Source: a virus
DNA length: 64,000 nt
IMG/VR virus record: IMGVR_UViG_3300005918_000012
Strand: one strand, 5' to 3'
Shown here: positions 43,426 through 63,249 of the stretch, one piece after another
How positions within the stretch are numbered: position 1 is the first letter of the stretch
Layout of the letters: every line of letters starts with the position of its first letter
Made by a program: the position numbers and the translations under genes
The notes under the pieces: generated by a model
The model's input: only the letters and a program-made list of their open reading frames with translations
Told to the model about the DNA's origin: nothing
Databases searched by the model: none

Positions 43426-44160
43426 ATGAAGATTCAAATCATGAGTGATATTCATGCCGAGTTCCATCAAGATCGTGGGCATTCCTTCGTGCAGAGCTTG
43501 ACCCCTAATGACACCGATGTATTGGTAATTGCCGGAGATTTCGGTTTAATGAGCCAATACTCAGAACTCATACCTATCTTAGTTGATAAATACCCGCATA
43601 TTGTTCTCGTTGTCGGCAACCATGAGTTCTATAATAGTGATAGAGAAACTGTCATGGCCGAGCTAGGAAAACTGTTACTTAAATATGATAATTTTCATGT
43701 TCTGGAAGATAGTCATGTTACCATTGACGGCCAACGATTCATCGGTTCAACTCTGTGGTTCCCTGATACGAAGTCAGCTCGTCCTAATTGGAGGATGCTT
43801 AATGATTTTAATGTTATACATGGTTTCCGGGACTGGGTGTTTGAAGTAAACACTAAATCTGTAGAGTTTCTCGTAAAAAATGTGAAACCTACAGATATTG
43901 TTGTGACTCATCATCTGCCGACTGCTCAGGCTTCTGACAAGAAGTGGTGGGACTCTCCATTGCAACCTTTCTTTGTTTGTAATATGGAGCGTGTTCTTAT
44001 TATGCAGCATCCGAAACTGTGGGTGTTTGGCCATACCCATGACAATTACAATAATCTGTTCCTTCTCCCTTCGAGGCAACGTACTCGGCTGATCTGTAAT
44101 CCTTTTGGGTATGCTGGTGAAAACCCTGACTATCAAGACAATCTGGTCATCGAAGTATGA
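43426..44160 (+). CDS. Calcineurin-like metallophosphoesterase
   Basis: Motifs SDIH, AGD, GNHE, THH and GHTH. Start ATG 43426 follows GAGG. Confidence 0.9.
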   Translation: MKIQIMSDIHAEFHQDRGHSFVQSLTPNDTDVLVIAGDFGLMSQYSELIPILVDKYPHIVLVVGNHEFYNSDRETVMAELGKLLLKYDNFHVLEDSHVTIDGQRFIGSTLWFPDTKSARPNWRMLNDFNVIHGFRDWVFEVNTKSVEFLVKNVKPTDIVVTHHLPTAQASDKKWWDSPLQPFFVCNMERVLIMQHPKLWVFGHTHDNYNNLFLLPSRQRTRLICNPFGYAGENPDYQDNLVIEV

Positions 44161-44513
44161 GGATAGCTATTGTTGGATCTCGTCAATGTGATGCTCAAGG
44201 GGCAGTTGAGTACCTAATAGGCTCTCTGGCTGCAAAAGACCCTGACATAACCATAGTATCAGGTGGGGCTCGTGGAGTGGATTCATGGGCTGCTCAGGCA
44301 GCAGAACGGGCAGGTTTGAAGGTTGGAGTTTATCTGGCTGATTAGAATACTCATGGTAAAGGAGCAGGTTTCATTCGGAACACTACCATTGTTGAAGAGT
44401 CTGATAAAGTGATTGCTTTTTGGGATGGTGTGAGCCGAGGGACCAACGACACCATTAGAAAAGCTCAGAGTGCTGATAAACTGGCTAAGGTTTTTATGGT
44501 TAAAGCCCTATAA
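44157..44513 (+). pseudogene. SLOG/YspA-like (DUF2493-type) nucleotide-binding protein with an in-frame TAG
   Basis: MRIAIVGSR...SGGARGVDSWA...YLAD[TAG 44343-45]NTHGKGAGFIRN...VIAFWDGVSRGT...TAA 44513. The stop replaces the W of the ADW motif. Confidence 0.8.
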
Positions 44514-47667: not shown

Positions 47668-49305
47668 ATGAAAACACTATTAAGATCCACATTCATAGGT
47701 GCTCCGGGTGATAATCCTGATTTATTTCTCCGAAATTACATTAAATTAGATGATTCAGGGTTACATTTTGATCTTCCTGAAGACGTGGTTATTTGGGAGT
47801 TCGTGAAACAATTTGTTCGGGCACATAACCACGCCCCTGATCTGACTACTTTAAAAACTCAGTTTGCTCGAACGAATGAGGATACGGTTACTGAACGTCT
47901 TCGAGTCTTGGAAAATATCAAAGGCTTCTCTCAGGGTGATTTTGATACCCGATTAGGAGCTAAAGTTGAAGAGCGTCGTATCCGTGAAGTCACAGAACTG
48001 ATGAAAGACTCCAGTACTATCTTAACGACAGGGCTGGAGATCAGGAATGGCAAAGAGAAAAGGATACTGAAAGGACCGATGGAAGCGGTTCATTATTTCT
48101 TAGAGAAAAGTCATTCCGTTGTTGCTCCTTCTTCTGGTTCCCGGCTTTCAGGTGAGGTAACGGGAGATGGAGAAGACTTCTCCCGCCGGTATGAGAAAGT
48201 TGAAGCTGACCCTCTGGCTGGAATCGGTCAGCATACTGGACTAACTCAGATAGATGTTGCTACCAATGGGGCCAGAAAGTTTGAGCTGTGGATTCATGCA
48301 GCTTTTACAGGTGGTATGAAATCCACTTGGGTTCTTAATTGGATTTACAATCAGGCTATTTACCATCTCCATTCTAATCTGTTATTCAGTCTGGAGATGC
48401 CTTATATCCAATGCCGTAATATCCTGTGGGCTATCCACAGTAGTCACCCTAAATTCAGGCTTATCAGATATTTCCTTGGCCTTCAATCTAACCCAACAGA
48501 AACAGTCGGGTTGAATTATGAACAAATCCGTGATGGGACGCTGGAGCCGAATGCTAGAAAGTTCCTGTTTGATTATGTCACACCTGATTACAATGGTAAA
48601 CCTGTTGATGTGGATACCTGTCCTCTGACGGGTGATAAATATCACGACCCTCAGACTAAAGAAATTTTGACTTGTACTGTGGATGAGTTTGGCAAACCTC
48701 ATCCTAAGTCAAGTGACTACGGAAAAATATTCATTGAGGTTGCAGACCCGACCAAAATGGACTTCACGATGGACCAGCTCAGGCAGAAGGCCGAGCTTAT
48801 CTATTCTAAAACTCCATTCAGGATGATTGTCATCGATCACGTTAGTTTACTTTCACCTCGTAAATGGGTGGCAAGTCGTACTGACCGAGATAATGAGATC
48901 ATTCGTGATACAAAGAAGTTGGCTATGTCATTCAATCGTGGTGCAGGAATGGCTGTTGTGGCATTGTTCCAGATATCTCGTGAGGGTTACAGGTCGGCTC
49001 TGAAGATCAAGGAGAAAACGGGTACGGCTCGATATGAAGTTACGGCTTTATCTTATGCCAATGAAGCTGAGAGGTCAGCGGATATTGTCACATCCTCGTG
49101 GATTGATGATGATCTGATGGGAGCTAACAGGGTTCAGTTCCAGTGCTTAAAATCTCGTGATCAGAAGCCCTTTGAGATGTTCTTAGCTCGTGTAGAATGG
49201 CCTTGTCGTCGTGTACTGACATGTTTCGATATGCCAATGACGACTAATCAAAATCAAGCTGTTGGAGCTGAAGTTGATGCCGCAGTGAATATTTTAGATT
49301 TATGA
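47668..49305 (+). CDS. dnaB: DnaB-like replicative helicase
   Basis: 'AAFTGGMKST', 'FSLEM', 'IVIDHVSLL', 'LFQISREG', 'SYANEAERSADIV' and 'LKSRD'. Confidence 0.85.
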   Translation: MKTLLRSTFIGAPGDNPDLFLRNYIKLDDSGLHFDLPEDVVIWEFVKQFVRAHNHAPDLTTLKTQFARTNEDTVTERLRVLENIKGFSQGDFDTRLGAKVEERRIREVTELMKDSSTILTTGLEIRNGKEKRILKGPMEAVHYFLEKSHSVVAPSSGSRLSGEVTGDGEDFSRRYEKVEADPLAGIGQHTGLTQIDVATNGARKFELWIHAAFTGGMKSTWVLNWIYNQAIYHLHSNLLFSLEMPYIQCRNILWAIHSSHPKFRLIRYFLGLQSNPTETVGLNYEQIRDGTLEPNARKFLFDYVTPDYNGKPVDVDTCPLTGDKYHDPQTKEILTCTVDEFGKPHPKSSDYGKIFIEVADPTKMDFTMDQLRQKAELIYSKTPFRMIVIDHVSLLSPRKWVASRTDRDNEIIRDTKKLAMSFNRGAGMAVVALFQISREGYRSALKIKEKTGTARYEVTALSYANEAERSADIVTSSWIDDDLMGANRVQFQCLKSRDQKPFEMFLARVEWPCRRVLTCFDMPMTTNQNQAVGAEVDAAVNILDL

Positions 49306-51500
49306 GAGTTATAACTGTTGGTAGAACCCCATTGATTAAGACCACCCCGATGAACTGTGCTATATTGGGTACAGGAGCTTTAAACATCGATGGGTGTAGG
49401 ATTGGGGAAGACCAGCAGAATCCTGGAGGTCGTTGGCCTGCTAATGTTATTTTGAGTCACCCTAAAGAGTGTCGATCTGGGTATTGTATATCAAGTTGTC
49501 CAGTGAAACAACTGGATATTGACAGCCTTGAAGCAGGTATCCATGCTGCGGGTAATAAGAAGAAGGCTTCGACCACGAAAAAAGGTAATACTTTTCACTT
49601 TGAAGCTTTCGATCACAACCCTGACTATTATAATGATTCAGGTGGTGCTTCACGATTTTTTAAATGCTTAAAGGAAGATGAGTTTATGAATATCCCACAA
49701 GAACTTTTAGATTACCTCTTAACGATGATCTCTACTCCTGATATGAAAGCTCTTTACAACGATGACATCAGTACCTGGAAGGTCGGGGAAGAAAAAGATA
49801 ATTCATATCCAGGGCTTGTAGCTTATGGGCAACCGACTGAGGAACAAGCAGCAGATCTGAAAAGAGTTTTAATGCCTGGTGCTCATCTTTTACTGATTGC
49901 CCCAGAGTCAGAACCAACAGGGCATACTGGAACTTGTAGGGTTGAGGATGCAGGCTTTGAAATTCGTGATGCTATCCTATGGATCAGAGAAGCAGGTCAT
50001 TTCCATTATGTTCCCAAAGCTTCACGTTCAGAACGTGAAGCAGGCTGTCAAACAGTTTCTGTAAGTGGTGCTGAGGCTGTAGGGCGTAAAGAGGGGTCTG
50101 ATGGTTTAGATAGTCCACGAGCAGGGGCTATTAAGAACTTCCATCCTTGTTTACACCCTGATACATTAGTGATGACTATAAGAGGTTATCGTCCTATAGG
50201 TGAAATAAAAATTGGAGATCAGGTGTTTAGTGCTGATGGGGGATTTCATATTGTAAAGGATGTTAGCCGTCACCTTTACACTTCTAGTCACCTGTATGAC
50301 ATTGGTGTTCATGGGACTAATTATTCGGCCCCCTCTTCAGATAACCACCCCTATTTAATATGGAGACCTGAACGAAAACGGAATTCCATTGTAGGAGGTT
50401 GTGCTTCTTGGATTGAGGCAAAAGATATTAAAAAAGGGGATTATACCATGACTCCTTTATGTAATTCATTTTCTACTGATGTGATATATCCTGATGATAT
50501 TGAACTTTGGTTTATGTTTGGATTGTATTTAGCTGATGGGGTTCTTCAACAGGCAGGACATGGATCTAACAGATATCCTTCGTATTCATTGGGTCTTGAT
50601 AAACCCCAACTAATTAAAAGAGTACAAAAATATTTTGAAAATACTGGTGTGAATGTTGGGGTTTATCCAAAATCTCGAAGTAAAGCAGTTCAATTAATAG
50701 CTTTTAATCCCAAAATAGGGCAGATGTTTGATTTGTATGGGGGTCAACATGCAGATACTAAAACATTAGCTCCTGACTTACTTGTAGCTAATGTTTCAAT
50801 TAAAAAAGCAATTTTGGATGGGTATTTGGCAGGAGATGGTTGTCAAGTAAAAGGCCGTTTATACAAACAAGCTAAAACGGTTTCTCCTGATCTTGCTTCC
50901 TTGATGGCTTTATTAGGAGATTCTATAGGGTATCGGACTAATTTGTTCAGATATGACCCCTTAATGGGTAAGGGTATTGGAGATCGAAAATTTAAGACTA
51001 CACTACCAACTTACCATTTATATTTTTATAGTCAAAATCAGAAACGGGTTGACCGTAAAAACTCACGTCCTACTTATATCGAGTATCAAGGCCAAACATA
51101 CCTTCTTCGATATGTTAAAGAAATCAAATCTGTTAGTTATACTGGGGTCGTTGTCAATTTGACTGTAGAAGGGTCACCAACTTTTCAAACCGTTGTAGGA
51201 ATGAGCCATAATACGGTTAAGCCTATTAAGTTGATGGAATGTTTATTGGATGGTATTCCTGTGGATAATGGTCCAGTAATGGACCCGTTTATGGGCAGCG
51301 GCTCAACTGGGATTGCGTGTCTCCATACTGGCCATGATTTTATTGGGACTGATAGAGAAAAAGATTATGTTGGTATTGCTACTTCCCGAATTCGTCACTG
51401 GGATAGTGAACAGGGGTATATAAATAGAGAAGTGGTTTCAGATTTCAAATCCGAAACCGAAGAAAAAGAACCTGTGGATTTGTGGGATATGGAAGATTAA
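49302..51500 (+). CDS. Permuted beta-class DNA amino-methyltransferase subunit: ARKP module + degenerate catalytic half + intein + SAM-binding half
   Basis: MRVITVGRTP...GTGALNIDGCRI...GRWPANVI...SRFFK; LKRVLMPGAHLL...VEDAGFEIRD; KASRSER; NFHP|intein|TVKP; VMDPFMGSGSTG. No DPPY motif. Confidence 0.85.
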   Translation: MRVITVGRTPLIKTTPMNCAILGTGALNIDGCRIGEDQQNPGGRWPANVILSHPKECRSGYCISSCPVKQLDIDSLEAGIHAAGNKKKASTTKKGNTFHFEAFDHNPDYYNDSGGASRFFKCLKEDEFMNIPQELLDYLLTMISTPDMKALYNDDISTWKVGEEKDNSYPGLVAYGQPTEEQAADLKRVLMPGAHLLLIAPESEPTGHTGTCRVEDAGFEIRDAILWIREAGHFHYVPKASRSEREAGCQTVSVSGAEAVGRKEGSDGLDSPRAGAIKNFHPCLHPDTLVMTIRGYRPIGEIKIGDQVFSADGGFHIVKDVSRHLYTSSHLYDIGVHGTNYSAPSSDNHPYLIWRPERKRNSIVGGCASWIEAKDIKKGDYTMTPLCNSFSTDVIYPDDIELWFMFGLYLADGVLQQAGHGSNRYPSYSLGLDKPQLIKRVQKYFENTGVNVGVYPKSRSKAVQLIAFNPKIGQMFDLYGGQHADTKTLAPDLLVANVSIKKAILDGYLAGDGCQVKGRLYKQAKTVSPDLASLMALLGDSIGYRTNLFRYDPLMGKGIGDRKFKTTLPTYHLYFYSQNQKRVDRKNSRPTYIEYQGQTYLLRYVKEIKSVSYTGVVVNLTVEGSPTFQTVVGMSHNTVKPIKLMECLLDGIPVDNGPVMDPFMGSGSTGIACLHTGHDFIGTDREKDYVGIATSRIRHWDSEQGYINREVVSDFKSETEEKEPVDLWDMED
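50148..51212 (+). mobile_element. Intein with LAGLIDADG endonuclease (355 aa) in the HP|TVKP motif
   Basis: Starts CLHPDT, ends MSHN, +1 residue is Thr. Contains 'FGLYLADG' and 'LDGYLAGDG'. Confidence 0.92.
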
Positions 51501-51529
51501 GCTTAGTTTTCCCTGTCCGTGGGTTGTTG
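51500..51529 (+). promoter_or_regulatory. Putative early-promoter motif (copy D)
   Basis: AGCTTAGTTTTCcctgtccGTGGGTTGTTG, followed by AGGAGG and ATG 51545. Confidence 0.7.
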
Positions 51530-51544
51530 ATGTAGGAGGATAAC

Positions 51545-52030
51545 ATGACAAAAAAATTAACTCAAGCAGAAACTGATTATAACACTGAAATCATGATTCA
51601 TCGGACGGATGTTTTTGAACAAATGCAGATTGTATCTGATGAGATAGAACATCGTCAGGCTACTCATGATCTATCCAAGAGTAGTGATGAGGAATTCTCA
51701 ACATACGCCGAGGTTATTCCTAAAGTCAAAGGGCTACCATTTGGATCACCAGAGGCCAGAACGATCATAAAAGAACTGGGTCCTGCTCTTAAACACCATT
51801 ATGAAAACAACAGACATCATCCTGAGCATTTCAAGGACGGAGTTGCAGGGATGCATTTGATTGATATAATTGAGATGGTCTGTGATTGGGTGGCTGTATC
51901 TGGAGCCAAAGGCACTGATGTCAGAAAAGGAATGATAGAAGTTCTGTTTCCCAAGCACGGGATCGAAGAACCTCTGGCCACAATCCTTTTAAACACTGTG
52001 GATTTCTTGGAAAAAGGTGACAACGAATGA
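51545..52030 (+). CDS. HD-superfamily protein (DUF5662-like)
   Basis: 'HDLSK...HHYENNRHHPEHF...MHLIDIIEMVCDW'. Confidence 0.8.
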   Translation: MTKKLTQAETDYNTEIMIHRTDVFEQMQIVSDEIEHRQATHDLSKSSDEEFSTYAEVIPKVKGLPFGSPEARTIIKELGPALKHHYENNRHHPEHFKDGVAGMHLIDIIEMVCDWVAVSGAKGTDVRKGMIEVLFPKHGIEEPLATILLNTVDFLEKGDNE

Positions 52031-52269
52031 AAAATAGCATTACAGTACAAATAACAGATGGCATTATTGAAATTGGCATCAACAAGAATGTGGCCATCGA
52101 TACAACATCTTTGATAAGGATGCAAACCCAAGAAGGTTGGGAGACAGGACTTAGCAGGGTTATATCAAGACTCCTTGACCCATTAGCCTCGGAGGTTCAG
52201 AAAGAATTGGAACAAACACTCCATCAAACAATTATTTATGATGGTTTTAATTATAAGGTAAATGAATGA
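52027..52269 (+). CDS. Hypothetical protein
   Basis: 80 aa, ATGA coupling at both ends. Confidence 0.6.
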   Translation: MKNSITVQITDGIIEIGINKNVAIDTTSLIRMQTQEGWETGLSRVISRLLDPLASEVQKELEQTLHQTIIYDGFNYKVNE

Positions 52270-52463
52270 CCCACTATTATCTATGTGCCTTCTGTGGGCA
52301 AAAATGGACTGAGGATGAGGCAGCATTGTTACCTCAGAGTGACAGTACCGCATCGATGCCTATATGTTGTGGTTATCCTATTTTTCAACAAACTTGGGAA
52401 GGTGAAGAACTATCCGATTGGATATCAGAAGCCGTGGCCGAAGCCGTGGGAGAAAAGGATTGA
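52266..52463 (+). CDS. Small zinc-ribbon-like protein
   Basis: CAFCG...ICCG. Confidence 0.55.
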   Translation: MTHYYLCAFCGQKWTEDEAALLPQSDSTASMPICCGYPIFQQTWEGEELSDWISEAVAEAVGEKD

Positions 52464-52466
52464 TAA

Positions 52467-52763
52467 ATGTCTAAACTTTTAACCACTGATAAAGAGAGAA
52501 AAGATTTATCTTTTCTGGACTGGAGTTCTGAATCTATTGGTAATGCTGTTAAAGATTCTGCTGTTAAAATATGCCAGTATAACAAAGCTCCTTACGATGC
52601 ATCAGGTAAAGATCTAATTCGTCTGAAAGCTGCTATGCTCGTAGTCCTTAATATTATGGAAAAGTCAAATGCTGAGACATTTACCCAAGAGATGCTTGAT
52701 GTAACAATCAAAGAGGTAAATATCGGAGATTACCAGATGAAGGTAACTAAGGTGAAAAGATGA
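52467..52763 (+). CDS. Hypothetical protein
   Basis: 98 aa, AAGGA RBS. Confidence 0.65.
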   Translation: MSKLLTTDKERKDLSFLDWSSESIGNAVKDSAVKICQYNKAPYDASGKDLIRLKAAMLVVLNIMEKSNAETFTQEMLDVTIKEVNIGDYQMKVTKVKR

Positions 52764-52791
52764 AACAGAACCCAGTTCCACAAACACTCCA
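52760..52791 (+). repeat. Remnant original 5' end of the methyltransferase gene, duplicated at 53600-53649
   Basis: atgaaacagaacccagttccacaaacactccatt (MKQNPVPQTL) versus atgaaaaggaaacagaacccccgtagggtggttccacaaacacttcaatt (MKRKQNPRRVVPQTL). Confidence 0.8.
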
Positions 52792-53535
52792 TTATGTTGG
52801 GGGCTTGTATGTACGAACATCTTCTATTTCCTTTTTCATCTGTCCCATACGAACCCACACACTTTTCCCTGGTTTAAAGGATGTCCACAAATGAACAGCC
52901 TTTTTCCAAATACGGAAATCATTAGCTTTCTTAGCCCTAATAGGGTATTGGTCGATAATACTAACCAAGGTAGGACAGTCGGCTTTAGTATCTACTATCC
53001 AAACCATACAAGGCTTACTATTCCCATTTCTCGATCTGTCAGGTTTCAATCTACCAAGTTGGAGTTTATTGACAATCTCAGTCAAAATAGGGGTGTCATC
53101 ATCTCGAAGTTTCAACGAGAAGGCACAACCGAAATATGCACCTTTTCGAACTTTGTGGATTCGAAAACACCCTTCTCCGGCAATGAAACCTGCCAACCAA
53201 TGTCCGAAACCATTAGTCAAGACAGGAGTAGGAGTTGGTGGGGGTGGTTGATAGGGGCCGCAGATAGGACGTGGAGACAGACCTTGTGTACGTGCTTTAT
53301 AATGGCATTCTTTGGAACACAAAGGAAGTCCTGCATCAGCTTTTTTAGCTGTCGAGGGAGGGCGTTCAAAAACAGTTCCACAGATAACACAGGTGTAAGA
53401 TTTAGATTTTTTAAGTTGTTGGGCTCGGAATTTATACGAGCATTTACGGGAGCATGTGGTTTGTCTTCCGTGTTTAAGACGTTTAGGATCAGCTTGATAG
53501 GTTTTTTTACATATCGGGCATGTTCTAGTTTGCAT
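52792..53535 (-). mobile_element. Free-standing single-motif LAGLIDADG homing endonuclease with two N-terminal Cys4 zinc-finger repeats
   Basis: 'WLAGFIAGEGCF'; CPICK..CSRKC and CVICG..CSKEC; AGGAGG RBS. Antisense to the surrounding operon. Confidence 0.85.
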
Positions 53536-53553
53536 TATTAAACCTCCTGTGAT

Positions 53554-53583
53554 ACTGTATCATGGACTAGGTTTTATTGTCAA
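53554..53583 (-). promoter_or_regulatory. Sigma70-like promoter of the homing endonuclease
   Basis: Minus strand reads TTGACA-N18-TACAGT with an extended TG, just upstream of AGGAGG. Confidence 0.6.
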
Positions 53584-53599
53584 GAGATAGGATGAAATA

Positions 53600-54481
53600 A
53601 TGAAAAGGAAACAGAACCCCCGTAGGGTGGTTCCACAAACACTTCAATTGCTCATGGGAGATTGCAAAGAAAAAATGCAATCTTTTGCTGAAGGCAGTAT
53701 TGGAAGTATTGTTTGTGATCCGCCCTATGGCTAACTTAGCTTATCCTTTATGAACAAGAAATGGGATAACCTTGATGAATGGAAGTCAGGGGCAGGGATG
53801 AGTAAACCTGGTATTGGCCAACGTGAGATTGAATGGCCTTCTTTAGGAGGAACTCAACCTTTCGGTGGAGCCAATCCAACATGTAAAGCCTGTGGTGGCC
53901 GTCTAAGAGGGGCTAAGAAATGTACCTGTGACGAACCAGAATGGGTTGTGGCTGGTGAACCTGTAGGAGACGGTGCAGACGCAGCCTTAAACATCTCCTT
54001 GGACAATATACACACTCAACAGGCTTGGCATCTGAATTGGTTGGTGGAAGCCTTCAGGGTATTGAAACCTGGAGGTGTCCTAAAAGCTTTCGGTGGCACC
54101 CGCACTTACCACCGGTTGGCAGCAGCTATGGAACAGGCAGGCTTTGTAGAAATTCATATGGATGCCTGGATATACGGATCTGGATTTCCGAAGTCATTAA
54201 ACATATCAAAGGCTTTGGATAAGAAAATTGGAGTTGAACCACAAGTAATAGGAACTACAACAGGTAAAGGTGGGGATAATGTCAACAATCAATCCCGACC
54301 AGGCAAAGGTGATAGTCTTTCTGCCAAAGGGTGTGGAGCTTATGGGGCAGGGGTAAAACAAGTCAATATTCAAATACCACTGACCTTACCTACTTCGGAT
54401 ATTGCCAAGAAGTTTGAAGGCTATGGGACGGCACTCAAGCCCGCTTGGGAAATAATAGTGGTAGGGAGGAAACCAGAATGA
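53600..54481 (+). CDS. Catalytic (DPPY) half of a beta-class DNA amino-methyltransferase, interrupted by an in-frame TAA at 53732-53734
   Basis: LLMGDCKEKM...SIVCDPPYG[TAA CTT AGC]LSFMNKKWD...FRVLKPGG...GGTRTYHRL...WIYGSGFPKSLNISKALDK...GYGTALKPAWEIIVVGRKPE*. No FxGxG motif. The 44-codon 5' part is missing from the ORF track. Confidence 0.85.
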
Positions 54482-54726
54482 ACAAAGTGTTTGAAGAAAA
54501 CGGAGAATGGTTTTTCAGATGTGGTCCTTTCCTAACGGAAAATGTTGCAACTAATCGTCTGGCGGAGCATACTGTAGAAACAGAGCCAGAGACTCAAAGA
54601 ATAGTTACTCCTGAAAAAGTTTGTCGGGAGTGTGCTTATAAAAAATCATCGAAAATCTGGGAAGCTCTTATTTGTAGAGGTACTTGTGATAGTTGTGGGA
54701 AAGTAAATATACCTTTATGGGGGTAA
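54478..54726 (+). CDS. Small protein with WFF/GPF motif and C-terminal CxxC pairs
   Basis: ATGA coupling to the upstream gene, GGGAGG RBS. Confidence 0.6.
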   Translation: MNKVFEENGEWFFRCGPFLTENVATNRLAEHTVETEPETQRIVTPEKVCRECAYKKSSKIWEALICRGTCDSCGKVNIPLWG

Positions 54727-54731
54727 CAGTA

Positions 54732-55190
54732 ATGGATCCTATAATTGAAAAAGATGGCCAATGGTTTTTTTCCGATGAGAATTGGTCGGATATTATTGGA
54801 CCTTTTAATACCGAGGAAATAGCCAGACATCAGTTGGCAGAATATGTCAAATATCTGAATGAGGGTTCTGAGCTGATATGCAAAACGATGGCAGAGTGGA
54901 TTAACAAATTGGCTGATGCTCACGATGCTGGGAAGAAAGTTACGTTAAACGATAACCCTCTGGACCGCTTGTTAGGGTTCAAAGTAGGTGGGACAACTAT
55001 TTCAGTTTCTTTGGTTTTAGCCCAAGGACGAGGATGGAATACCACAGAAGGTCTTAAAGCTCTAAAACGTATTGATTTTGACGACTATTCTTTTGGACAC
55101 TCTCTTCAGAGTCCTGGTAGAAGAGAAGCTCTTGTTACGAAATTATATCACGTAAAAAGGAAATATTGCAGGGGAGGAGACAGGAAATGA
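54732..55190 (+). CDS. Hypothetical protein sharing an N-terminal WFF/GPF motif with the upstream gene
   Basis: 'EKDGQWFF...GPFNTEEIARHQLAEY' versus 'EENGEWFF..GPFLTENVATNRLAEH'. Confidence 0.6.
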   Translation: MDPIIEKDGQWFFSDENWSDIIGPFNTEEIARHQLAEYVKYLNEGSELICKTMAEWINKLADAHDAGKKVTLNDNPLDRLLGFKVGGTTISVSLVLAQGRGWNTTEGLKALKRIDFDDYSFGHSLQSPGRREALVTKLYHVKRKYCRGGDRK

Positions 55191-56023
55191 AAAGACTTGT
55201 AACAATGGGACATTGGACGACGTTCAACCGTATGTTGACCATCAAAGATGAAATCGTCGGTCACCCAAAATACCCTGGAGAATCTGAGGAGAAACTTTTG
55301 GCTTTGATGCCGTGGGCAAAAGACCGAGCAAATGACCCCATCTCAATCTCTACGGCTATGAGACCGCTCCTGTCTTTGGGTGTTGATAAAGTTTTCCTGC
55401 TCCTGAAAGTAAATATGCAACCTTACCAGTACCAAGAAGGACTAGAGTACGGCTTTCGGGTCATGAAACATGGTGCCCCTGATTATATTTCAGCACAGGA
55501 ATTTCTTCAAAAAGCATCTAATGCTTTTAAGGACACGGGTGAAGAAAACCCTAAACTCACTCCTTTCAATGTTGTTTCCAGTTGTTACACCACAATACAA
55601 GCCCGAATGAAACAGCAAGGGAAAGAAGATCAGTGGGTTGATGAGAAGGACTGGCAGTTCCAAGAGTTCCTAAACGTGTTTGGGTTGTTTCCTGCCAATG
55701 ATGCAACGATGGCACGAATTGATGGTTGGACAGGGAAACCTTTCCGAGGTCCTTTGACACGAGAACTTATGGTTGATGCTTTTGCAGCCATTGGTACAGA
55801 TAGTGTTTCTACTCTTCTTGTTTCTGAGAAAACTCGTGGGACTCTCTTTCACGGCTTGGTTGTTAAATCTGAGGACGATGACCAGTATATTGACCTTGGT
55901 GGAAACTCCCTTTGGGGTGCTCATATTGAAACTGCTGATATCCCTGATAATAAGATATATTTTATCGGTGCAGATAAGGACAACCGTGTGCAGAGAGTAG
56001 ATATTCAACAGAAGGAGAGTTAA
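55187..56023 (+). CDS. Hypothetical protein
   Basis: ORF track gives 55166..56023. ATG 55187 follows GGAGGAG and overlaps the upstream stop. Confidence 0.65.
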   Translation: MKRLVTMGHWTTFNRMLTIKDEIVGHPKYPGESEEKLLALMPWAKDRANDPISISTAMRPLLSLGVDKVFLLLKVNMQPYQYQEGLEYGFRVMKHGAPDYISAQEFLQKASNAFKDTGEENPKLTPFNVVSSCYTTIQARMKQQGKEDQWVDEKDWQFQEFLNVFGLFPANDATMARIDGWTGKPFRGPLTRELMVDAFAAIGTDSVSTLLVSEKTRGTLFHGLVVKSEDDDQYIDLGGNSLWGAHIETADIPDNKIYFIGADKDNRVQRVDIQQKES

Positions 56024-56025
56024 AG

Positions 56026-56394
56026 ATGGCAGAGAAACAATGCCCGTTTTGTAATGAACTTAGATTTGAAAAAACACAGGGTCTTGCAGCTTGTTTATTT
56101 GATGGATATCCTGTGAATAAAGGCCATAGGCTGATTGTTCCCATTCGACATGTTGAGGAGTTTTCGGATATCACAAGTGATGAGATGAGGGATATTTTAG
56201 AGCTGGCTCAGTTGGAAATAAAAAATCTTGTAAACGTAGATGGGGTAAATGTTGGATGGAATTTGGGATATGCTGCTGGACAGACTGTACCTCATATTCA
56301 TTTACACGTCATCCCAAGGTTTTTAGGTGATGTCCCTGACCCTGTGGGTGGTATTCGGGGAGTTATCCCTGAAAAAAGGGTTTATGAAAAATGA
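56026..56394 (+). CDS. HIT-family nucleotide hydrolase
   Basis: CPFC, 'YPVNKGHRLIVP' and 'AGQTVPHIHLHVIPR'. Confidence 0.92.
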   Translation: MAEKQCPFCNELRFEKTQGLAACLFDGYPVNKGHRLIVPIRHVEEFSDITSDEMRDILELAQLEIKNLVNVDGVNVGWNLGYAAGQTVPHIHLHVIPRFLGDVPDPVGGIRGVIPEKRVYEK

Positions 56395-57389
56395 ACCCAG
56401 AGAATGCTTTAGAAGAGTGGCAAATGAAAACCCGGTCTGGTTACCCATTGGATCTTAAAATTCAAATGAGTCTTAGCCGGATTAGAAGTTGGTACGAACA
56501 CCACCAAGGTAAAGTATCAGTGTCGTATTCAGGAGGTAAAGATTCCTCCGTCCTACTTCATCTGGTTCGTCAGTTGTATCCTAACACTCCGGCAGTATTT
56601 TGTGACACAGGATTAGAATACCCTGAAATCAGGAGGTTTGCCAGAGAAACAGAGAATGTAATTGTCCTCAAACCTAAGATGAACTTTCAAGAAGTTGTTA
56701 AGAAGTATGGATGGCCAGCTGTATCTAAACGGAATGCTCAGTATATCCATGAGGCTGGGTGTGGTTCTATTGGTTCGGCTACCCACACCCTCCGCTTAAC
56801 AGGAATGACAAGCAAGGGTGAGTATTTATCCTTGGGCAAAATACCTAACAAGTGGTTGTATTTAGTAGATGAGGTTCGAGCTGGAAACCTGAAGATAAAT
56901 CACCGTTGCTGTCATGTTATGAAGAAAGCACCTTTACATAAGCATATTAAGGAAACGGGACAGTATCCTTATGTCGGAGTCACAGCAACAGAGAGTAAAG
57001 ACCGAGAACTATCTTGGAAAAGGTTTGGGTGTAATGCTTATAATATGAAGAACCCGATGTCTCGGCCATTAATGGCTTGGACAGAGCAAGATATATTGCA
57101 ATACCTTCTGGATAATAAGTTAAAGATGTCCAGTGTCTATGGTAATATAGTTAAAGATGATACAGGGAAGCTTTCATTGACCGGAGTATCCCGGACAGGT
57201 TGCATGTTTTGTATGTTTGGTGCTCATATGGAGAAATACCCAAACAGGTTTGAGAAAATGAAAAAGACTCACCCAAAACAATGGGCTTTCATCACTCAAA
57301 AGATGGGTGGTGGTAAAGTCTTAGACTTGTTAAAAGTTCCGTGGGGAGACCCAGAGGATTTAAGTGTTTTTGAAATAATTGATTCATAG
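56391..57389 (+). CDS. PAPS-reductase-family (PP-loop) protein
   Basis: 'SYSGGKDS', 'DTGLEYPE', 'CCHVMKK' and 'RTGCMFC'. Confidence 0.9.
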   Translation: MNPENALEEWQMKTRSGYPLDLKIQMSLSRIRSWYEHHQGKVSVSYSGGKDSSVLLHLVRQLYPNTPAVFCDTGLEYPEIRRFARETENVIVLKPKMNFQEVVKKYGWPAVSKRNAQYIHEAGCGSIGSATHTLRLTGMTSKGEYLSLGKIPNKWLYLVDEVRAGNLKINHRCCHVMKKAPLHKHIKETGQYPYVGVTATESKDRELSWKRFGCNAYNMKNPMSRPLMAWTEQDILQYLLDNKLKMSSVYGNIVKDDTGKLSLTGVSRTGCMFCMFGAHMEKYPNRFEKMKKTHPKQWAFITQKMGGGKVLDLLKVPWGDPEDLSVFEIIDS

Positions 57390-57873
57390 GTAAAAGAATG
57401 ATAGTTATTACCGTAGCCCGAAAACCTATTTCAGGTTCTGTGGTGGGAAACATAGTCCAATGGGGTACTTGTGGACTCAATATTGATGCCTGCCGTATCG
57501 GATATGAAGACACCCCTAACGTAGCATCAAATCCATTGTTTCGAACACAACAAGGATATTCATTCAAGCATGGTTCAGACCGTGGGGCAGCTTTCCAAAT
57601 TCAGAAAAAAGACGGTGACATCAAGATTAACCCTGCTGGCCGTTGGCCTTCTAATGTGATTTTGGGTCAAAATGCTGTAGCAGCAATGGATAAACAGTCT
57701 TCAGTTACAAAGAACATAGTCCGACACATGAGTTACCAACGGTCAGGTGGAGAATTCATTGATGGGATACCTTCTCAACCTGAGAAAGGCTGGCATGTGA
57801 CTGAACCTAACAAACCTTCCAGATTCTTCAAGCAGGTAAAAGAATGATAGTTATTACCGTAGCCCGAAAACCT
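57388..57873 (+). repeat. Perfect 40-bp direct repeat at module junctions (57388-57427 / 57834-57873), with a near-copy at about 62615-62660
   Basis: aggtaaaagaatgatagttattaccgtagcccgaaaacct. Confidence 0.92.
57398..57847 (+). CDS. Stand-alone ARKP module (middle, TRD-position region of a phage beta-class MTase)
   Basis: MIVITVARKP...GTCGLNIDACRI...GRWPSNVI...SRFFKQVKE. Confidence 0.8.
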   Translation: MIVITVARKPISGSVVGNIVQWGTCGLNIDACRIGYEDTPNVASNPLFRTQQGYSFKHGSDRGAAFQIQKKDGDIKINPAGRWPSNVILGQNAVAAMDKQSSVTKNIVRHMSYQRSGGEFIDGIPSQPEKGWHVTEPNKPSRFFKQVKE

Positions 57874-60624
57874 TTCCCGAAGACACTGGTGAGCAACATC
57901 CAGAAGAACGGGACAGGCTGCATCAACATTGATGCTTGCCGAATAACCCCAACAGGGGAATGGTTGGGTGGTGGGGACGAACGGCCTGAAACTATTGACA
58001 AGAAACAGAGTCATTGGAGTCAGCCGTGGATGCATCGTTCTGAAGATGCCAAACGTCATGCTGAAATGATGAAGGAAGATATCAAACGACATTCATTGAT
58101 GGGTAGATTCCCTGCCAATATTATTTTGGAACATAACCCTGACTGTGTCTCTTTAGGTCTGGCCAAGATCAAAGGTTTTCCGCAAGTCAATGTTGATAAA
58201 CTCCCTGTAGAAGAACGTATCCAATCTGGAGAACAACATGGCCACATCTGGGGTCGTGGTGTAGGGATTGGTGTGAAGGGTGTCAGCTATACCGTTGGGT
58301 TCGGTGACGAATCAGGTCAGGAATCCGTTGAATCTTGGGAGTGTGTGGGTGATTGTCCTGTACGGCAGATTGACGTACAGAGTGGCAACTCTTTATCTTC
58401 TGGTGGCCGAACTGCTAATATCTCTACTACTTCTAAAATCTATGGTGGTGGGAAAGGTTTGGGGCAGGATCTTTTAGCTGATGATGTGAAAGGAGACCCG
58501 GGCTACGGTGATTTAGGCGGGGCTTCCCGATATTTCAAACAGATAAAACAGGAGTCTAAATTGGAAAAAGGAATTAATGTATTATCTTTATTTGACGGGA
58601 TGAGCTGCGGGCAAATAGCTCTTAACCGACTGGGCATTAAATATGATAAATACTTTGCCAGTGAGATTGATAAACATTCTATGGCCGTTACTATGCATAA
58701 CTATCCCGACACAATTCAACTGGGTGATGTCACACAGGTATTTGCTAAAGACTTGCCTCAGATTGATCTCTTGATAGGTGGTTCTCCATGTTTTGTGGCT
58801 GGTACAAAAATCATTTGTGAAAAGGGTATTCGGTCAATTGAAGACATTTGTGTTGGTAATAAGGTGTTAACTCATAAAGGTCGTTACAAGAAAATTATAA
58901 GAATAGGTAATGATAGTAAGCCATTATGCACTTTATTAAGTCAAGGGGCCACTGAAACTACAACTACAGCCAATCACCCCTATTATGTCAGAACACGAAA
59001 AAAATTATGGAATAACAATAAAAGAACTTATGAATGGGTTTTTAGTGATCCTGAATGGGTAGAGGTTTGTGATATAAAAATTGGTGATTATATTGGGACA
59101 CCGATCTTGAGAACTGAAAAAAACCCTTTAAACTTGTCTTCTGATGAATGTTATTTATTAGGGCTTTATATAGGAGATGGACATACGAGAAAAGACTACA
59201 GGACCTCAGAAAACCGACCTAATGATAGACATTGGCAGTTAATTATATCGGTAGGGAAACACGAAAAGGTTTCATTTAAGAAGAATATAAAACTAAAACA
59301 TTCTTTTTACGAACATACCAAAAGTGTTTACAGGGCTGTTTTTTCCAGTAAACACCTAGTGAAAATAGCGGAGAAACATTGTGGGGTAGGGGCTAAAAAC
59401 AAATATCTGTCTAAAATGCTGTTGGATTTACCAAAACCTTTATTAGAGAAAGTTCTGGAGGGTTATCTTTTTGCAGATGGTAGTTGTAGAAGAGAAACCT
59501 ATAGGACCACAACAATTTCCAAGAGTCTGGTAGAAACTTTAGCATTAGCAGTAGCAAAAGTATATAGGACAACTTGTTCTATCGAGTATACAGTTAGACC
59601 TGCAAAGACCATCATTGAAGGACGTGTTGTAAACCAACAAAACACATATACAATAACTTACAGGAAATACCATACAAAACAATCTCGTGCTTGGGTCATT
59701 GAGGATGTAGTATGGAATCCAGTGAAGAAAATAAAAAATATAGGGGTAGTAGATACCGTTTATAACCTTGAGGTGGGTAAAGATAACTCCTATGTGGCTA
59801 ATAACCATATAGTACATAATTGTCAGGGGTTCAGTTTTGCTGGGAAGCAGTTGAATTTCAAAGACCCTCGGAGTATGTTGTTCTTTGAGTTCGTTCGATT
59901 GCTCCGAGAATGCAAACCTAAATACTTCTTGTTAGAGAACGTCAAGATGAAACGAGAGTATGAGTATGCTATCACTGAGCTGTTAGGTGTAAGCTGTGCT
60001 CGAATCAATTCCAACCTTGTATCAGCTCAGAATCGTTCCCGTTTATACTGGACAAATATTCCAGGTGAAGGTGATTACGTTATTGGGAGTTTTATTGATC
60101 AGCCCGAAGACAAAGGAATCCTTCTTCAAGATATTTTGGAAGATAACCAGTTAAAAGAACCAGTGGTCTTGAGACCTGCTCGAAGTGAAGAAGGGAAAAG
60201 GATACGGAAAGAACATCAAGCTACACACGGTACTGATTATACTCCGTTCCAAGCTAAAGTCCAACTCCCTAGGACTGATGGGAAAGCAAATTGCCTTACC
60301 ACTTCTCTCTTAGACAATAAGATCATTGACAAAGCATTATGGAGAAAGACAGAGGAATTCCCATATAAAGCAGACACTCCTTCCAGCCCGGAAGGGAAAG
60401 CTAAATGTTTGAGAGCCGAAGCTGGGGGGAAGACTAGAGGGATTGGGGTTTTCAATGAAGATAAAACTCAGTATCGGCTATTAACCCCGGAAGAATGTGA
60501 AGCTTTACAAACCGTCCCACGAGGATATACGTCCCCAGCTTCAAGATCACAAAGATGCCGGATGCTTGGAAACGGTTGGACTATAGATGTTATTACACAT
60601 ATAATGAAAGGTATGGAGCTATGA
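57844..60624 (+). CDS. ARKP module fused to an intein-containing C5-cytosine DNA methyltransferase
   Basis: Residues 1-~235 are an ARKP module. Then 'VLSLFDGMSCG', 'SEID', 'GGSP|intein|CQGFS', 'LLENV', 'QNRSRLYW', 'RLLTPEECEALQ' and 'LGNGW'. A possible internal TTG start at 58561 has AGGAG upstream. Confidence 0.9.
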   Translation: MIVITVARKPFPKTLVSNIQKNGTGCINIDACRITPTGEWLGGGDERPETIDKKQSHWSQPWMHRSEDAKRHAEMMKEDIKRHSLMGRFPANIILEHNPDCVSLGLAKIKGFPQVNVDKLPVEERIQSGEQHGHIWGRGVGIGVKGVSYTVGFGDESGQESVESWECVGDCPVRQIDVQSGNSLSSGGRTANISTTSKIYGGGKGLGQDLLADDVKGDPGYGDLGGASRYFKQIKQESKLEKGINVLSLFDGMSCGQIALNRLGIKYDKYFASEIDKHSMAVTMHNYPDTIQLGDVTQVFAKDLPQIDLLIGGSPCFVAGTKIICEKGIRSIEDICVGNKVLTHKGRYKKIIRIGNDSKPLCTLLSQGATETTTTANHPYYVRTRKKLWNNNKRTYEWVFSDPEWVEVCDIKIGDYIGTPILRTEKNPLNLSSDECYLLGLYIGDGHTRKDYRTSENRPNDRHWQLIISVGKHEKVSFKKNIKLKHSFYEHTKSVYRAVFSSKHLVKIAEKHCGVGAKNKYLSKMLLDLPKPLLEKVLEGYLFADGSCRRETYRTTTISKSLVETLALAVAKVYRTTCSIEYTVRPAKTIIEGRVVNQQNTYTITYRKYHTKQSRAWVIEDVVWNPVKKIKNIGVVDTVYNLEVGKDNSYVANNHIVHNCQGFSFAGKQLNFKDPRSMLFFEFVRLLRECKPKYFLLENVKMKREYEYAITELLGVSCARINSNLVSAQNRSRLYWTNIPGEGDYVIGSFIDQPEDKGILLQDILEDNQLKEPVVLRPARSEEGKRIRKEHQATHGTDYTPFQAKVQLPRTDGKANCLTTSLLDNKIIDKALWRKTEEFPYKADTPSSPEGKAKCLRAEAGGKTRGIGVFNEDKTQYRLLTPEECEALQTVPRGYTSPASRSQRCRMLGNGWTIDVITHIMKGMEL
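58789..59820 (+). mobile_element. Intein with LAGLIDADG endonuclease (344 aa) at the catalytic P|C of the C5 MTase
   Basis: Starts CFVAGT, ends IVHN, +1 residue is Cys. Contains 'LGLYIGDG' and 'LEGYLFADG'. Confidence 0.93.
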
Positions 60625-62195: not shown

Positions 62196-62638
62196 TTGTT
62201 ATCACTGTAGCAAGAAAACCTATCACAGGGACTGTAGTAGATAACATCCAACAATGGGGTACGGGTGGACTCAACATTGGTGAATGTCGTATTGCAAGTA
62301 ACCCCGGTGAATATGATATCAGACATTATACAAATGAGGATTGCTTTACATCTGTGGGTAAAGAAAAGAAAAGTAAATTTCAGGTGAAACCACAACCCTC
62401 TGGCCGATTCCCTGCTAACGTCATTTTTGAACATAATCCTGAATGTGTTGATAACTGTCCTGTACGGCAACTTGACGTACAAAGTGGTATTTTAACAAGT
62501 GGTGGGAAAGCAGGAAAACAATATCTTTGGAAAAAAAACCACGGTGCAGTTACACTCGGGCGAACAAATGCCGTAACGAGTCCTGTTTATGCGGATTCAG
62601 GAGGAGCTTCTCGTTTCTTCAAGCAGGTTAAAGAATGA
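62192..62638 (+). CDS. Stand-alone ARKP module
   Basis: MIVITVARKP...GTGGLNIGECRI...GRFPANVI..HNPEC..CPV...GGASRFFKQVKE. Confidence 0.8.
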   Translation: MIVITVARKPITGTVVDNIQQWGTGGLNIGECRIASNPGEYDIRHYTNEDCFTSVGKEKKSKFQVKPQPSGRFPANVIFEHNPECVDNCPVRQLDVQSGILTSGGKAGKQYLWKKNHGAVTLGRTNAVTSPVYADSGGASRFFKQVKE

Positions 62639-63249
62639 TAGTTATAACAGTAGCCAGAAAGCCCTTAAAAGGGGCTGTGGTGGACAATATAGTCCAATGG
62701 GGTACTGGTGGGCTTAATCTTGATGCAAGTCGTGTAAGAGGGCCATTAGGTCCAGGTGTTTGGGGAACCAGCAATGCTACTGTTCGAGATGATCGGATGT
62801 TCAACAGCTCCCCTGAGATGCGGGAGTGGAAGTCTCAACCTCATGATGCTGGTCGATTCCCTACCAACGTCATTCTGGAACATAAGCCCGGGTGTCAGAG
62901 TACAGGCTCTCAGAAAATGAAACCTAAAGAAGGTTATCGTCCGAACCCTGTTAATGTTCAGTCAGACGGAGCTATACAATTCAGTCAGAAACCTCCAGGT
63001 TATCAAAAAATTAGTTATACTGACGATAATGGTTTGGAGACCATGGAAACATGGGAGTGTGTGGATGGATGCCCTGTCCGTTATCTGAATGAGACAGTCG
63101 GTATAACTAAAACAGGTACAATGAAAAAGTGGTTTGACCCGGGAGAAAAAGGTAGAGTCTATGGAACACCCCAAGGTCGTTATAAGCAAAGTGTCGGCAA
63201 TGAGGGCTATGTTTCTCGGTTTTTTAAGCAATTTCGGGTAAAGAAGTGA
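62635..63249 (+). CDS. Stand-alone ARKP module
   Basis: MIVITVARKP...GTGGLNLDASRV...GRFPTNVI..HKPGC...WECVDGCPV...SRFFKQ. Confidence 0.8.
   Translation: MIVITVARKPLKGAVVDNIVQWGTGGLNLDASRVRGPLGPGVWGTSNATVRDDRMFNSSPEMREWKSQPHDAGRFPTNVILEHKPGCQSTGSQKMKPKEGYRPNPVNVQSDGAIQFSQKPPGYQKISYTDDNGLETMETWECVDGCPVRYLNETVGITKTGTMKKWFDPGEKGRVYGTPQGRYKQSVGNEGYVSRFFKQFRVKK

Follow-up and report, generated by a model that had tools for sequence, protein, structure and literature searches.

Do two incomplete, separately encoded methyltransferase-like proteins of a phage constitute a single enzyme, and how would one of them be translated when a stop codon interrupts its frame directly after the catalytic motif? 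These questions are raised by a stretch of viral DNA of 64,000 nucleotides, referred to here as the window. Matching DNA is found in salt-lake metagenomes, and a 402-kb contig that carries the same genes identifies the source as an uncultured jumbo phage. The two genes, A and B, lie in a replication and DNA-modification cluster together with genes for an SNF2 helicase, DnaB, methylases, a primase zinc finger and DNA polymerase A. A HIT-family gene and a PAPS-reductase-like gene (56026-57389) within the same cluster may have further DNA-modification roles. A tRNA search detected no tRNA genes in the 64,000-nt window.

Gene A: a module, a degenerate duplicate domain and the SAM-binding half

Gene A encodes a protein of 732 amino acids that corresponds to the back half of a beta-class amino-methyltransferase (MTase) and has no DPPY motif. 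Its parts are as follows.

49302..51500, plus strand: gene A, an open reading frame with a middle module, a dead duplicate (pseudo) domain and a SAM-binding C-terminal half, with an intein (Pfam PF01555, E 4.5e-15)
49302..49670, plus strand: middle module of gene A, at the TRD position of single-chain relatives; it opens with a second copy of the last strand of B, and its paralogues match PHROG 3008
49686..50000, plus strand: pseudo-domain, a degenerate copy of the catalytic half without DPPY (conservation table, profile match and fold match)
50148..51212, plus strand: intein with a LAGLIDADG-type endonuclease, inside the HPTVKP motif (Cys1, His-Asn end, Thr+1, two LAGLIDADG-type motifs)
51213..51500, plus strand: MTase motifs X, I (SAM binding) and II; the model aligns with M.RsrI 208-304 (rmsd 1.9) and CcrM 135-258

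The motifs that an earlier note had quoted from gene A are all in place, with DPPY absent and the intein between HP and TVKP; the degenerate motif-IV site lies at 49794-49835 and the SAM motif at 51282-51311. We found 303 homologues of this gene. The pseudo-domain, approximately 105 residues between the module and the SAM half, matches the profile of the B family (E 2e-4), and DPPY occurs in this segment in none of 231 homologues. According to the conservation table, its motif-IV columns are variable, its helix motif PTGH.G.C..ED.GFEIRD is strongly conserved and several core residues are also near-invariant. The domain is widespread, with 165 clusters (50% identity) at E 1e-10 or better; no full-length match to it was found in 50,697 phage records. 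The AF2 model of an intein-free orthologue of gene A (pLDDT 81) contains two separate MTase-like parts: residues 147-260 are the pseudo-domain, whose fold resembles that of class I MTases in structure comparison (Z 5-6.5), and residues 261-388 correspond to the C-terminal region of M.RsrI and CcrM. Foldseek searches with A alone returned low TM-scores, because A is less than a whole domain.

The intein has the features of class 1 LAGLIDADG inteins, namely Cys1, a terminal His-Asn, a Thr/Ser/Cys residue at +1 and a Hint domain. It is missing in the close relative L003 and present in a short form at the same site in L002. Its persistence had been taken as a sign that gene A is expressed and under selection; the intein is indeed intact, but it is a weak sign of either, being a selfish element that L003 lacks. 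Gene A is altered in other ways elsewhere: in L090/L091:6630-9033, a DUF559-type nuclease gene on the opposite strand interrupts it between the pseudo-domain and the SAM half, and in L002:5560-5700 it lacks most of the N-terminal module through an apparent deletion and frameshift, while stand-alone modules remain.

Gene B: the catalytic half

The frame at 53600-54481 has DPPY (at 53717) and a Cys4 insert (53882-53929) and lacks a SAM motif, as had been reported. It is not, as had been assumed, a single open reading frame: an in-frame TAA (53732-53734) directly 3' of DPPYG breaks it into 44 and 243 amino acids.

53600..53731, plus strand: gene B part 1, from the start supplied by the element through the catalytic DPPYG; the last codon, GGC, is the presumed take-off codon
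53732..53740, plus strand: 9-nt insert TAA CTT AGC, with the in-frame stop and the presumed landing triplet AGC; absent from the endonuclease-free allele
53741..54481, plus strand: gene B part 2, with a variable Cys4 loop and motifs V-VIII, ending at the split point of the family (by sequence comparison)

In single-chain phage enzymes of this family, the catalytic half is followed by the middle module and then by the SAM half. Chain B stops after the last strand of the catalytic half, and so do most of its 120 listed homologues; B has no remnant of a SAM half, and its end falls exactly where the module begins in the single-chain enzymes. In a tree of 97 columns and 64 rows, a branch with support 100/99 separates the split B halves from the single-chain enzymes. 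Between part 2 and the corresponding region of L259, pN is 0.08 and pS is 0.51. In the family comparison, the loop after DPPYG accommodates insertions of 6 to about 250 residues.

Two claims of the earlier note give way here. B had been described as a mirror-image degenerate enzyme and is simply half of one. The N-terminal, TRD-position module of A had been read as a permutation; it is rather the segment that follows the last residue of B in single-chain relatives, and the window holds four more copies of it (at 57398, 57844, 62192 and 62635). These copies had escaped the earlier note, as had the stop in B and the homing-endonuclease gene beside it. The arrangement of A and B, as judged from the sequences, is that of gene fission, and the N-terminal place of the module results from fission, not from permutation.

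A and B as probable parts of one enzyme

Gene A is present in 25 of the 26 loci that have a stand-alone B and at least 5 kb of upstream sequence (about 20 distinct genomes), and the sole exception has only 475 nt downstream. Many co-occurrence loci were reached from the B side; when loci were found from the A side, all eight distinct A-type loci showed a B hit within 10 kb. Natural fusions were found in seven proteins, with the order B-module-A in P0051, P0067 and P0373 and the order A-B in P0068, P0323, P0336 and P0346. In the AF2 model of fusion P0067 (pTM 0.79), the two ends build one domain that matches CcrM with Z 20.9 (rmsd 3.7, 228 aligned residues); Z is 18.7 against M.PvuII and M.RsrI, and the domain has the seven strands of an MTase.

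We also modeled the complex of the L003 chains, which are free of both the intein and the stop. The score was 0.87, compared with 0.00 for the best control; the mark applied to this score was reached by 51 of 78 solved pairs and 2 of 108 mismatched pairs. Because split-gene halves tend to pass via resemblance to solved structures, the score is a measure of fit and not of binding. The runs agree in at least 77% of contacts, and the partner pLDDT is at least 69. The best contacts join A332-334, in the strand before motif I, to B26-29, in the strand before DPPY, and A234-238, in the invariant helix of the pseudo-domain, to B158-162, in the equivalent helix of B. A check of the heterodimer for a shared SAM pocket had been proposed; in the models, DPPY and the SAM motif fall within a single CcrM-like domain. 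Co-occurrence across related phages, also proposed as a check, gave the near-constant pairing described above.

Neither A nor B by itself has the beta-class order of motif IV, TRD region and motif I; this order arises when B, the module and the end of A are read in succession, and it is present in the natural fusions. The C5-cytosine motifs (PC and ENV) are absent, A/B being a DPPY amino-MTase. A and B are two chains with complementary, non-overlapping motifs and near-complete co-occurrence, as expected of a split MTase. In the models, one catalytic domain is assembled from chain B, with DPPY and motifs IV-VIII, and the end of A, with motifs X, I and II. The enzyme would be an N6-adenine/N4-cytosine DNA methyltransferase of the beta class whose pieces the phage encodes separately. 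Beta-class enzymes act as dimers with a division of labor, in which the catalytic site of one subunit faces the recognition domain of the other (PMC7544214). The dead duplicate in A is predicted to pack on B, probably at the position of the second subunit of the homodimer, and A plus B would then be a version of the dimer with one active site. We propose, as the simplest reading, that B and the end of A may form the catalytic protomer, and the pseudo-domain and the module a recognition-only protomer. Sequences and models together argue strongly for a split enzyme with an A-B complex and a built-in pseudo-protomer, and we regard this part of our account as very probable.

The earlier note had pictured two full-length degenerate paralogues, one of them permuted, that pair in the manner of METTL3/METTL14. 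This fits the degenerate catalytic half and intact SAM motif of A and the presence of DPPY alone in B. It is largely refuted by the fusion model, which forms the domain from B and only the C-terminal part of A; moreover, B has no SAM-half remnant and ends exactly at the module start of single-chain enzymes, the module is often separate or missing from A (44 A-type proteins begin at the pseudo-domain), and the model of A consists of two MTase-like parts. Nor does the arrangement match a METTL3-type enzyme, with catalytic and SAM motifs on one chain, as B is without the SAM half and A is without DPPY. We consider the paralogue-pair explanation very improbable. What survives of it is that a conserved dead domain exists; its METTL14-like role, however, would belong to a third element inside A, the active domain being cut as in M.AquI. 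The claim that A and B complete one active site in trans is most likely correct in view of the co-occurrence, the fusions and the complex and fused-protein models. It is equally improbable that A and B are independent remnants or partners of other proteins: on the one hand, their order is reversed and a stretch of 2.1 kb with unrelated genes separates them; on the other hand, they co-occur almost completely, are fused in both orders, have complementary motifs and are both strongly conserved.

A homing-endonuclease cassette in gene B

Upstream of gene B lies a nuclease gene on the opposite strand, preceded by a short remnant.

52760..52791, plus strand: left-behind original 5' end of gene B, the first 10 codons, matching the start of B in the uninvaded L259
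52792..53535, minus strand: free-standing homing-type endonuclease with a zinc-finger N-terminus and LAGLIDADG_1 (Pfam PF00961, E 1.4e-14), with its own SD; absent from L259 and L003

L259 and L003, the closest relatives, have neither the insert stop nor the neighboring LAGLIDADG gene. A contig recovered in run X5 has a joint that skips 855 nt and lacks the nuclease and the insert together, beside an invaded allele. The remnant at 52760-52791, the new start at 53600 and these empty alleles are the hallmarks of a cassette. A homing-endonuclease element has entered codon 11 of gene B, supplying both a new 5' end and the 9-nt insert, and the insert probably shields the presumed target site from recutting. 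Two observations count against this account: an adjacent nuclease was detected in only 16 of 53 insert alleles, with an HMM built from those same loci, and nuclease-adjacent genes without an insert occur in L352, L373 and L375. When the nuclease was the starting point of the search, its neighbor was an insert allele or an insert-free gene, or else the nuclease lay antisense within a methylase.

The antisense type, in which a nuclease of the same zinc-finger family lies inside the methylase a few codons after DPPY, was seen in L338, L341, L342, L346-L348, L351, L353 and L356-L362. In these loci, the methylase frame stays open for approximately 250 codons, and the arrangement resembles the ShiLan insertion on the opposite strand; five of them were searched for introns, with no Rfam match. 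Different phages combine this zinc-finger N-terminal domain with a LAGLIDADG, a Vsr/DUF559-like or an HNH nuclease domain (window 52792-53535, L090, L117, L156, L171, L200, L215 and L260). These nucleases always adjoin methylases of the A/B family, which can be read as swapping of nuclease domains on a fixed targeting domain.

Stop-led inserts and probable translational bypass

The stop in gene B is not a sequencing error, since it recurs across contigs from several samples: at least 12 contigs carry the downstream 243-aa protein, and the six of them that were inspected all have the 44-aa plus 243-aa split. Genome-wide stop recoding is rejected as well, since relatives have TAA, TAG or TGA at this site and all three also terminate ordinary genes.

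With no stop demanded of the pattern, a search found extra DNA between DPPYG and Phe-Met in 101 distinct contexts; these counts, and those that follow, were drawn from related sequences and are not numbers of independent events. An in-frame stop opens all 65 frame-shifting inserts and 14 in-frame ones (79 stop-led inserts), and TGA, TAG and TAA are all used. [quoted passage not shown] In insert alleles, the mRNA upstream of the site folds more stably than its synonymous shuffles do, with a mean z of -2.55 (n=90) as against -0.53 in insert-free B genes (n=29). Downstream of the insert, the pooled dN/dS is 0.27 across 21 disjoint insert-bearing pairs, including pairs with different inserts. The two codons between the insert and Phe-Met keep the family residues with synonymous variation, which indicates that they are still translated.

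The codon match, the position of the stop and the upstream structure are marks of tRNA re-pairing, and bypass is likely to operate in this family of inserts. The window copy has a stop (TAA) directly after the take-off codon like all 65 frame-shifting inserts, and its upstream fold has z -1.84 against synonymous and -1.09 against dinucleotide shuffles. Its landing codon, AGC, mismatches the take-off codon, GGC, at position 1; a Gly take-off with an AGY landing is found in 9 of the 66 inserts. A ribosome paused at TAA with peptidyl-tRNA-Gly would slide 9 nt and re-pair at AGC, giving full-length B. For the window itself, we judge from its sequence that production of gene B by this route is somewhat favored, with less assurance than for the family.

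The best surviving alternative, which we nevertheless consider unlikely, keeps the split enzyme and takes gene B of the window as dead, with the insert as the lethal scar of a selfish nuclease in a dispensable gene. An in-frame TAA shortly after the catalytic motif and an imperfect landing codon would be expected of such a scar, uninvaded alleles exist in the same lake, and synthetic stop hops need slow decoding while natural cases are few (PMC5009743). A dead gene does not account for downstream frames that remain open and under purifying selection in insert-bearing pairs, whatever the insert, nor for the non-random stop position, codon match and upstream structure.

Slightly less probable still is rescue of gene B by readthrough, or by re-initiation at Met 53750 to give a third small peptide. 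The window insert is 9 nt long and in frame, so that readthrough could rescue this copy too; the loop after DPPYG tolerates insertions, and a Met lies three codons past the insert. Readthrough, however, is unable to repair the 65 of 79 stop-led inserts that shift the frame, and re-initiation is at odds with the family residues and synonymous variation retained in the two codons before Phe-Met.

Removal of the insert at the RNA or DNA level, by a mini-intron, trans-splicing or excision, we regard as highly unlikely: although inserts are flanked by short repeats and homing nucleases often travel with introns, inserts can be as short as 4-5 nt, have no fixed terminal base (their ends track the take-off codon) and carry an obligatory in-frame stop, there is no Rfam match, and the sole insert-free DNA seen is a diverged allele. 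A group I or other self-splicing intron was rejected as well, as the insert has 9 nt and no fixed ends, and Rfam gave no match within 49000-56000.

Bypass is our preferred reading of the insert. The explanation as a whole, comprising the split enzyme, the homing element, the 9-nt insert and bypass, we hold with moderate confidence.

Several other sites deserve mention. In L092:6540-6570, beside a LAGLIDADG gene, the Tyr and Gly codons are separated by a variant insert of 7 nt that has no stop and opens with CCA; it may be a decayed or a different hop. In a methylase of another subfamily (DPPYG-TTAC type), a stop-led insert of 9 nt occupies the equivalent position, with AGT as the landing triplet (L119:645). 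In the window, a DprA/YAcAr-like gene (44157-44510) has an in-frame TAG, after which the frame stays open for about 55 codons, and the same is seen in L084. The family usually has Trp at this position. A point mutation to a stop is the likeliest origin of the TAG, although the context GAT-TAG-AAT would also suit a stop hop.

Middle modules and their possible exchange

The window holds five copies of the module, that of gene A and four more, with conserved ends and unrelated middles.

57398..57847, plus strand: stand-alone middle module, paralogue 2 (sequence match)
57844..60624, plus strand: paralogue 3 of the middle module, joined to an intein-bearing C5-cytosine MTase; the same fusion occurs in L002, L003, L092 and L259
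62192..62638, plus strand: stand-alone middle module, paralogue 4 (sequence match)
62635..63249, plus strand: stand-alone middle module, paralogue 5 (sequence match)

In the fusion at 57844-60624, the module is at the N-terminus of the C5-cytosine MTase. The module is commonly a separate gene, as the 44 A-type proteins that lack it imply. Each locus has one A, one to six B and up to nine modules. In the tandem arrays of L005:9545-18704, L146:5390-10552 and L269:5052-11363, one gene A is flanked by as many as six B genes and as many as seven stand-alone modules. The module has no family in NCBIfam or Pfam, and its look-alikes in the Atlas are unnamed viral clusters.

Judging by its position, DNA recognition is the likeliest role of the module, both within A and as a separate chain; the Cys4 loop of B is an alternative candidate. 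The presence of one A with many B genes and modules, the latter with conserved ends and unrelated middles, suggests that modules are exchangeable specificity parts, a tentative proposal drawn from sequence comparison. More speculative, and on the doubtful side, is the extended version in which one constant chain combines with exchangeable catalytic chains and a library of recognition modules to methylate several motifs, the catalytic chain being made by a natural short stop hop of a widespread minimal-bypass family.

Comparison with known systems and implications

The nearest relatives of this enzyme are the single-chain beta-class methylases of actinophages and other phages (PF01555; PHROG 67; Gosselin et al. 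2023, PMC9957025). They have the same motifs and the module, and B, the module and the end of A tile the single chain; in contrast, the pieces of A/B are encoded by separate genes, a dead duplicate has been added, and the module and B each have several paralogues. Simple halves occur elsewhere, in PHROG 6025 and 3008. Cultured phages (INPHARED) gave only single-chain or distant hits, with no gene A and no full match to the nuclease. The PF01555 phage methylase family is a known target of inteins, homing nucleases and selfish insertions (PMC9957025, PMC11855218).

M.AquI and M.EcoHK31I, natural two-polypeptide C5 MTases (PMC3404938), likewise distribute one catalytic domain with complementary motifs over two chains. 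A/B differs from them in being an amino-MTase, in having catalytic and SAM motifs on different chains, in its dispersed genes and in its gene stoichiometry, with as many as six B and as many as nine modules per A. In METTL3-METTL14 and MTA1-MTA9, compared with the homodimers CcrM and M.EcoP15I (PMC7544214), a dead MTase-like domain takes the place of the second protomer, as it appears to do in A/B, and catalysis is divided from scaffolding or recognition, as proposed for A/B. METTL3 has DPPW and the SAM site in one chain, whereas the dead domain of A is fused to half of the active domain.

T4 gene 60 and its MobA cassette (bioRxiv 10.1101/2022.08.31.505936; PMC5009743) have a take-off codon followed by a stop, a matched landing codon and upstream structure, as the methylase inserts do when taken as a family, and there too an adjacent free-standing homing nuclease supplies a new N-terminus of about 44 residues. 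The gap in the methylases is 4-24 nt and not 20-50, the host gene encodes a methylase and not a topoisomerase, and bypass of the methylase inserts is deduced from sequence; unlike MobA, the nuclease on the methylase side combines a common zinc-finger domain with a LAGLIDADG, Vsr-like or HNH domain. In the hidden-HNH insertion of phage ShiLan (PMC11855218), the same methylase family was invaded by a homing nuclease and not destroyed. That insertion is same-strand, stop-free and in frame, whereas the nuclease of the window lies upstream on the opposite strand and has left a stop-led gap.

Split C5 enzymes (PMC3404938), METTL3/14 dead-partner dimers and T4 bypass with a homing nuclease are thus each known separately. 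A literature search of incomplete coverage turned up neither a split amino-MTase that has an internal dead protomer and paralogous modules nor any account of short stop-led gaps after DPPY or of bypass in methylases.

If the split holds, A/B would be a natural amino-methyltransferase with its catalytic and SAM motifs on different chains, an obligatory dimer turned asymmetric by a built-in dead protomer and a phage parallel to METTL3/14 reached via a different route. Exchangeable modules, if true, would provide a new means of varying methylation specificity, of use to a phage against many restriction systems and in the engineering of split or targeted methylases. If the hop holds, it would answer a standing question in recoding, namely whether the short stop hops of synthetic constructs serve in nature, and would offer dozens of variants of 4-24 nt that can be tested in a simple reporter.
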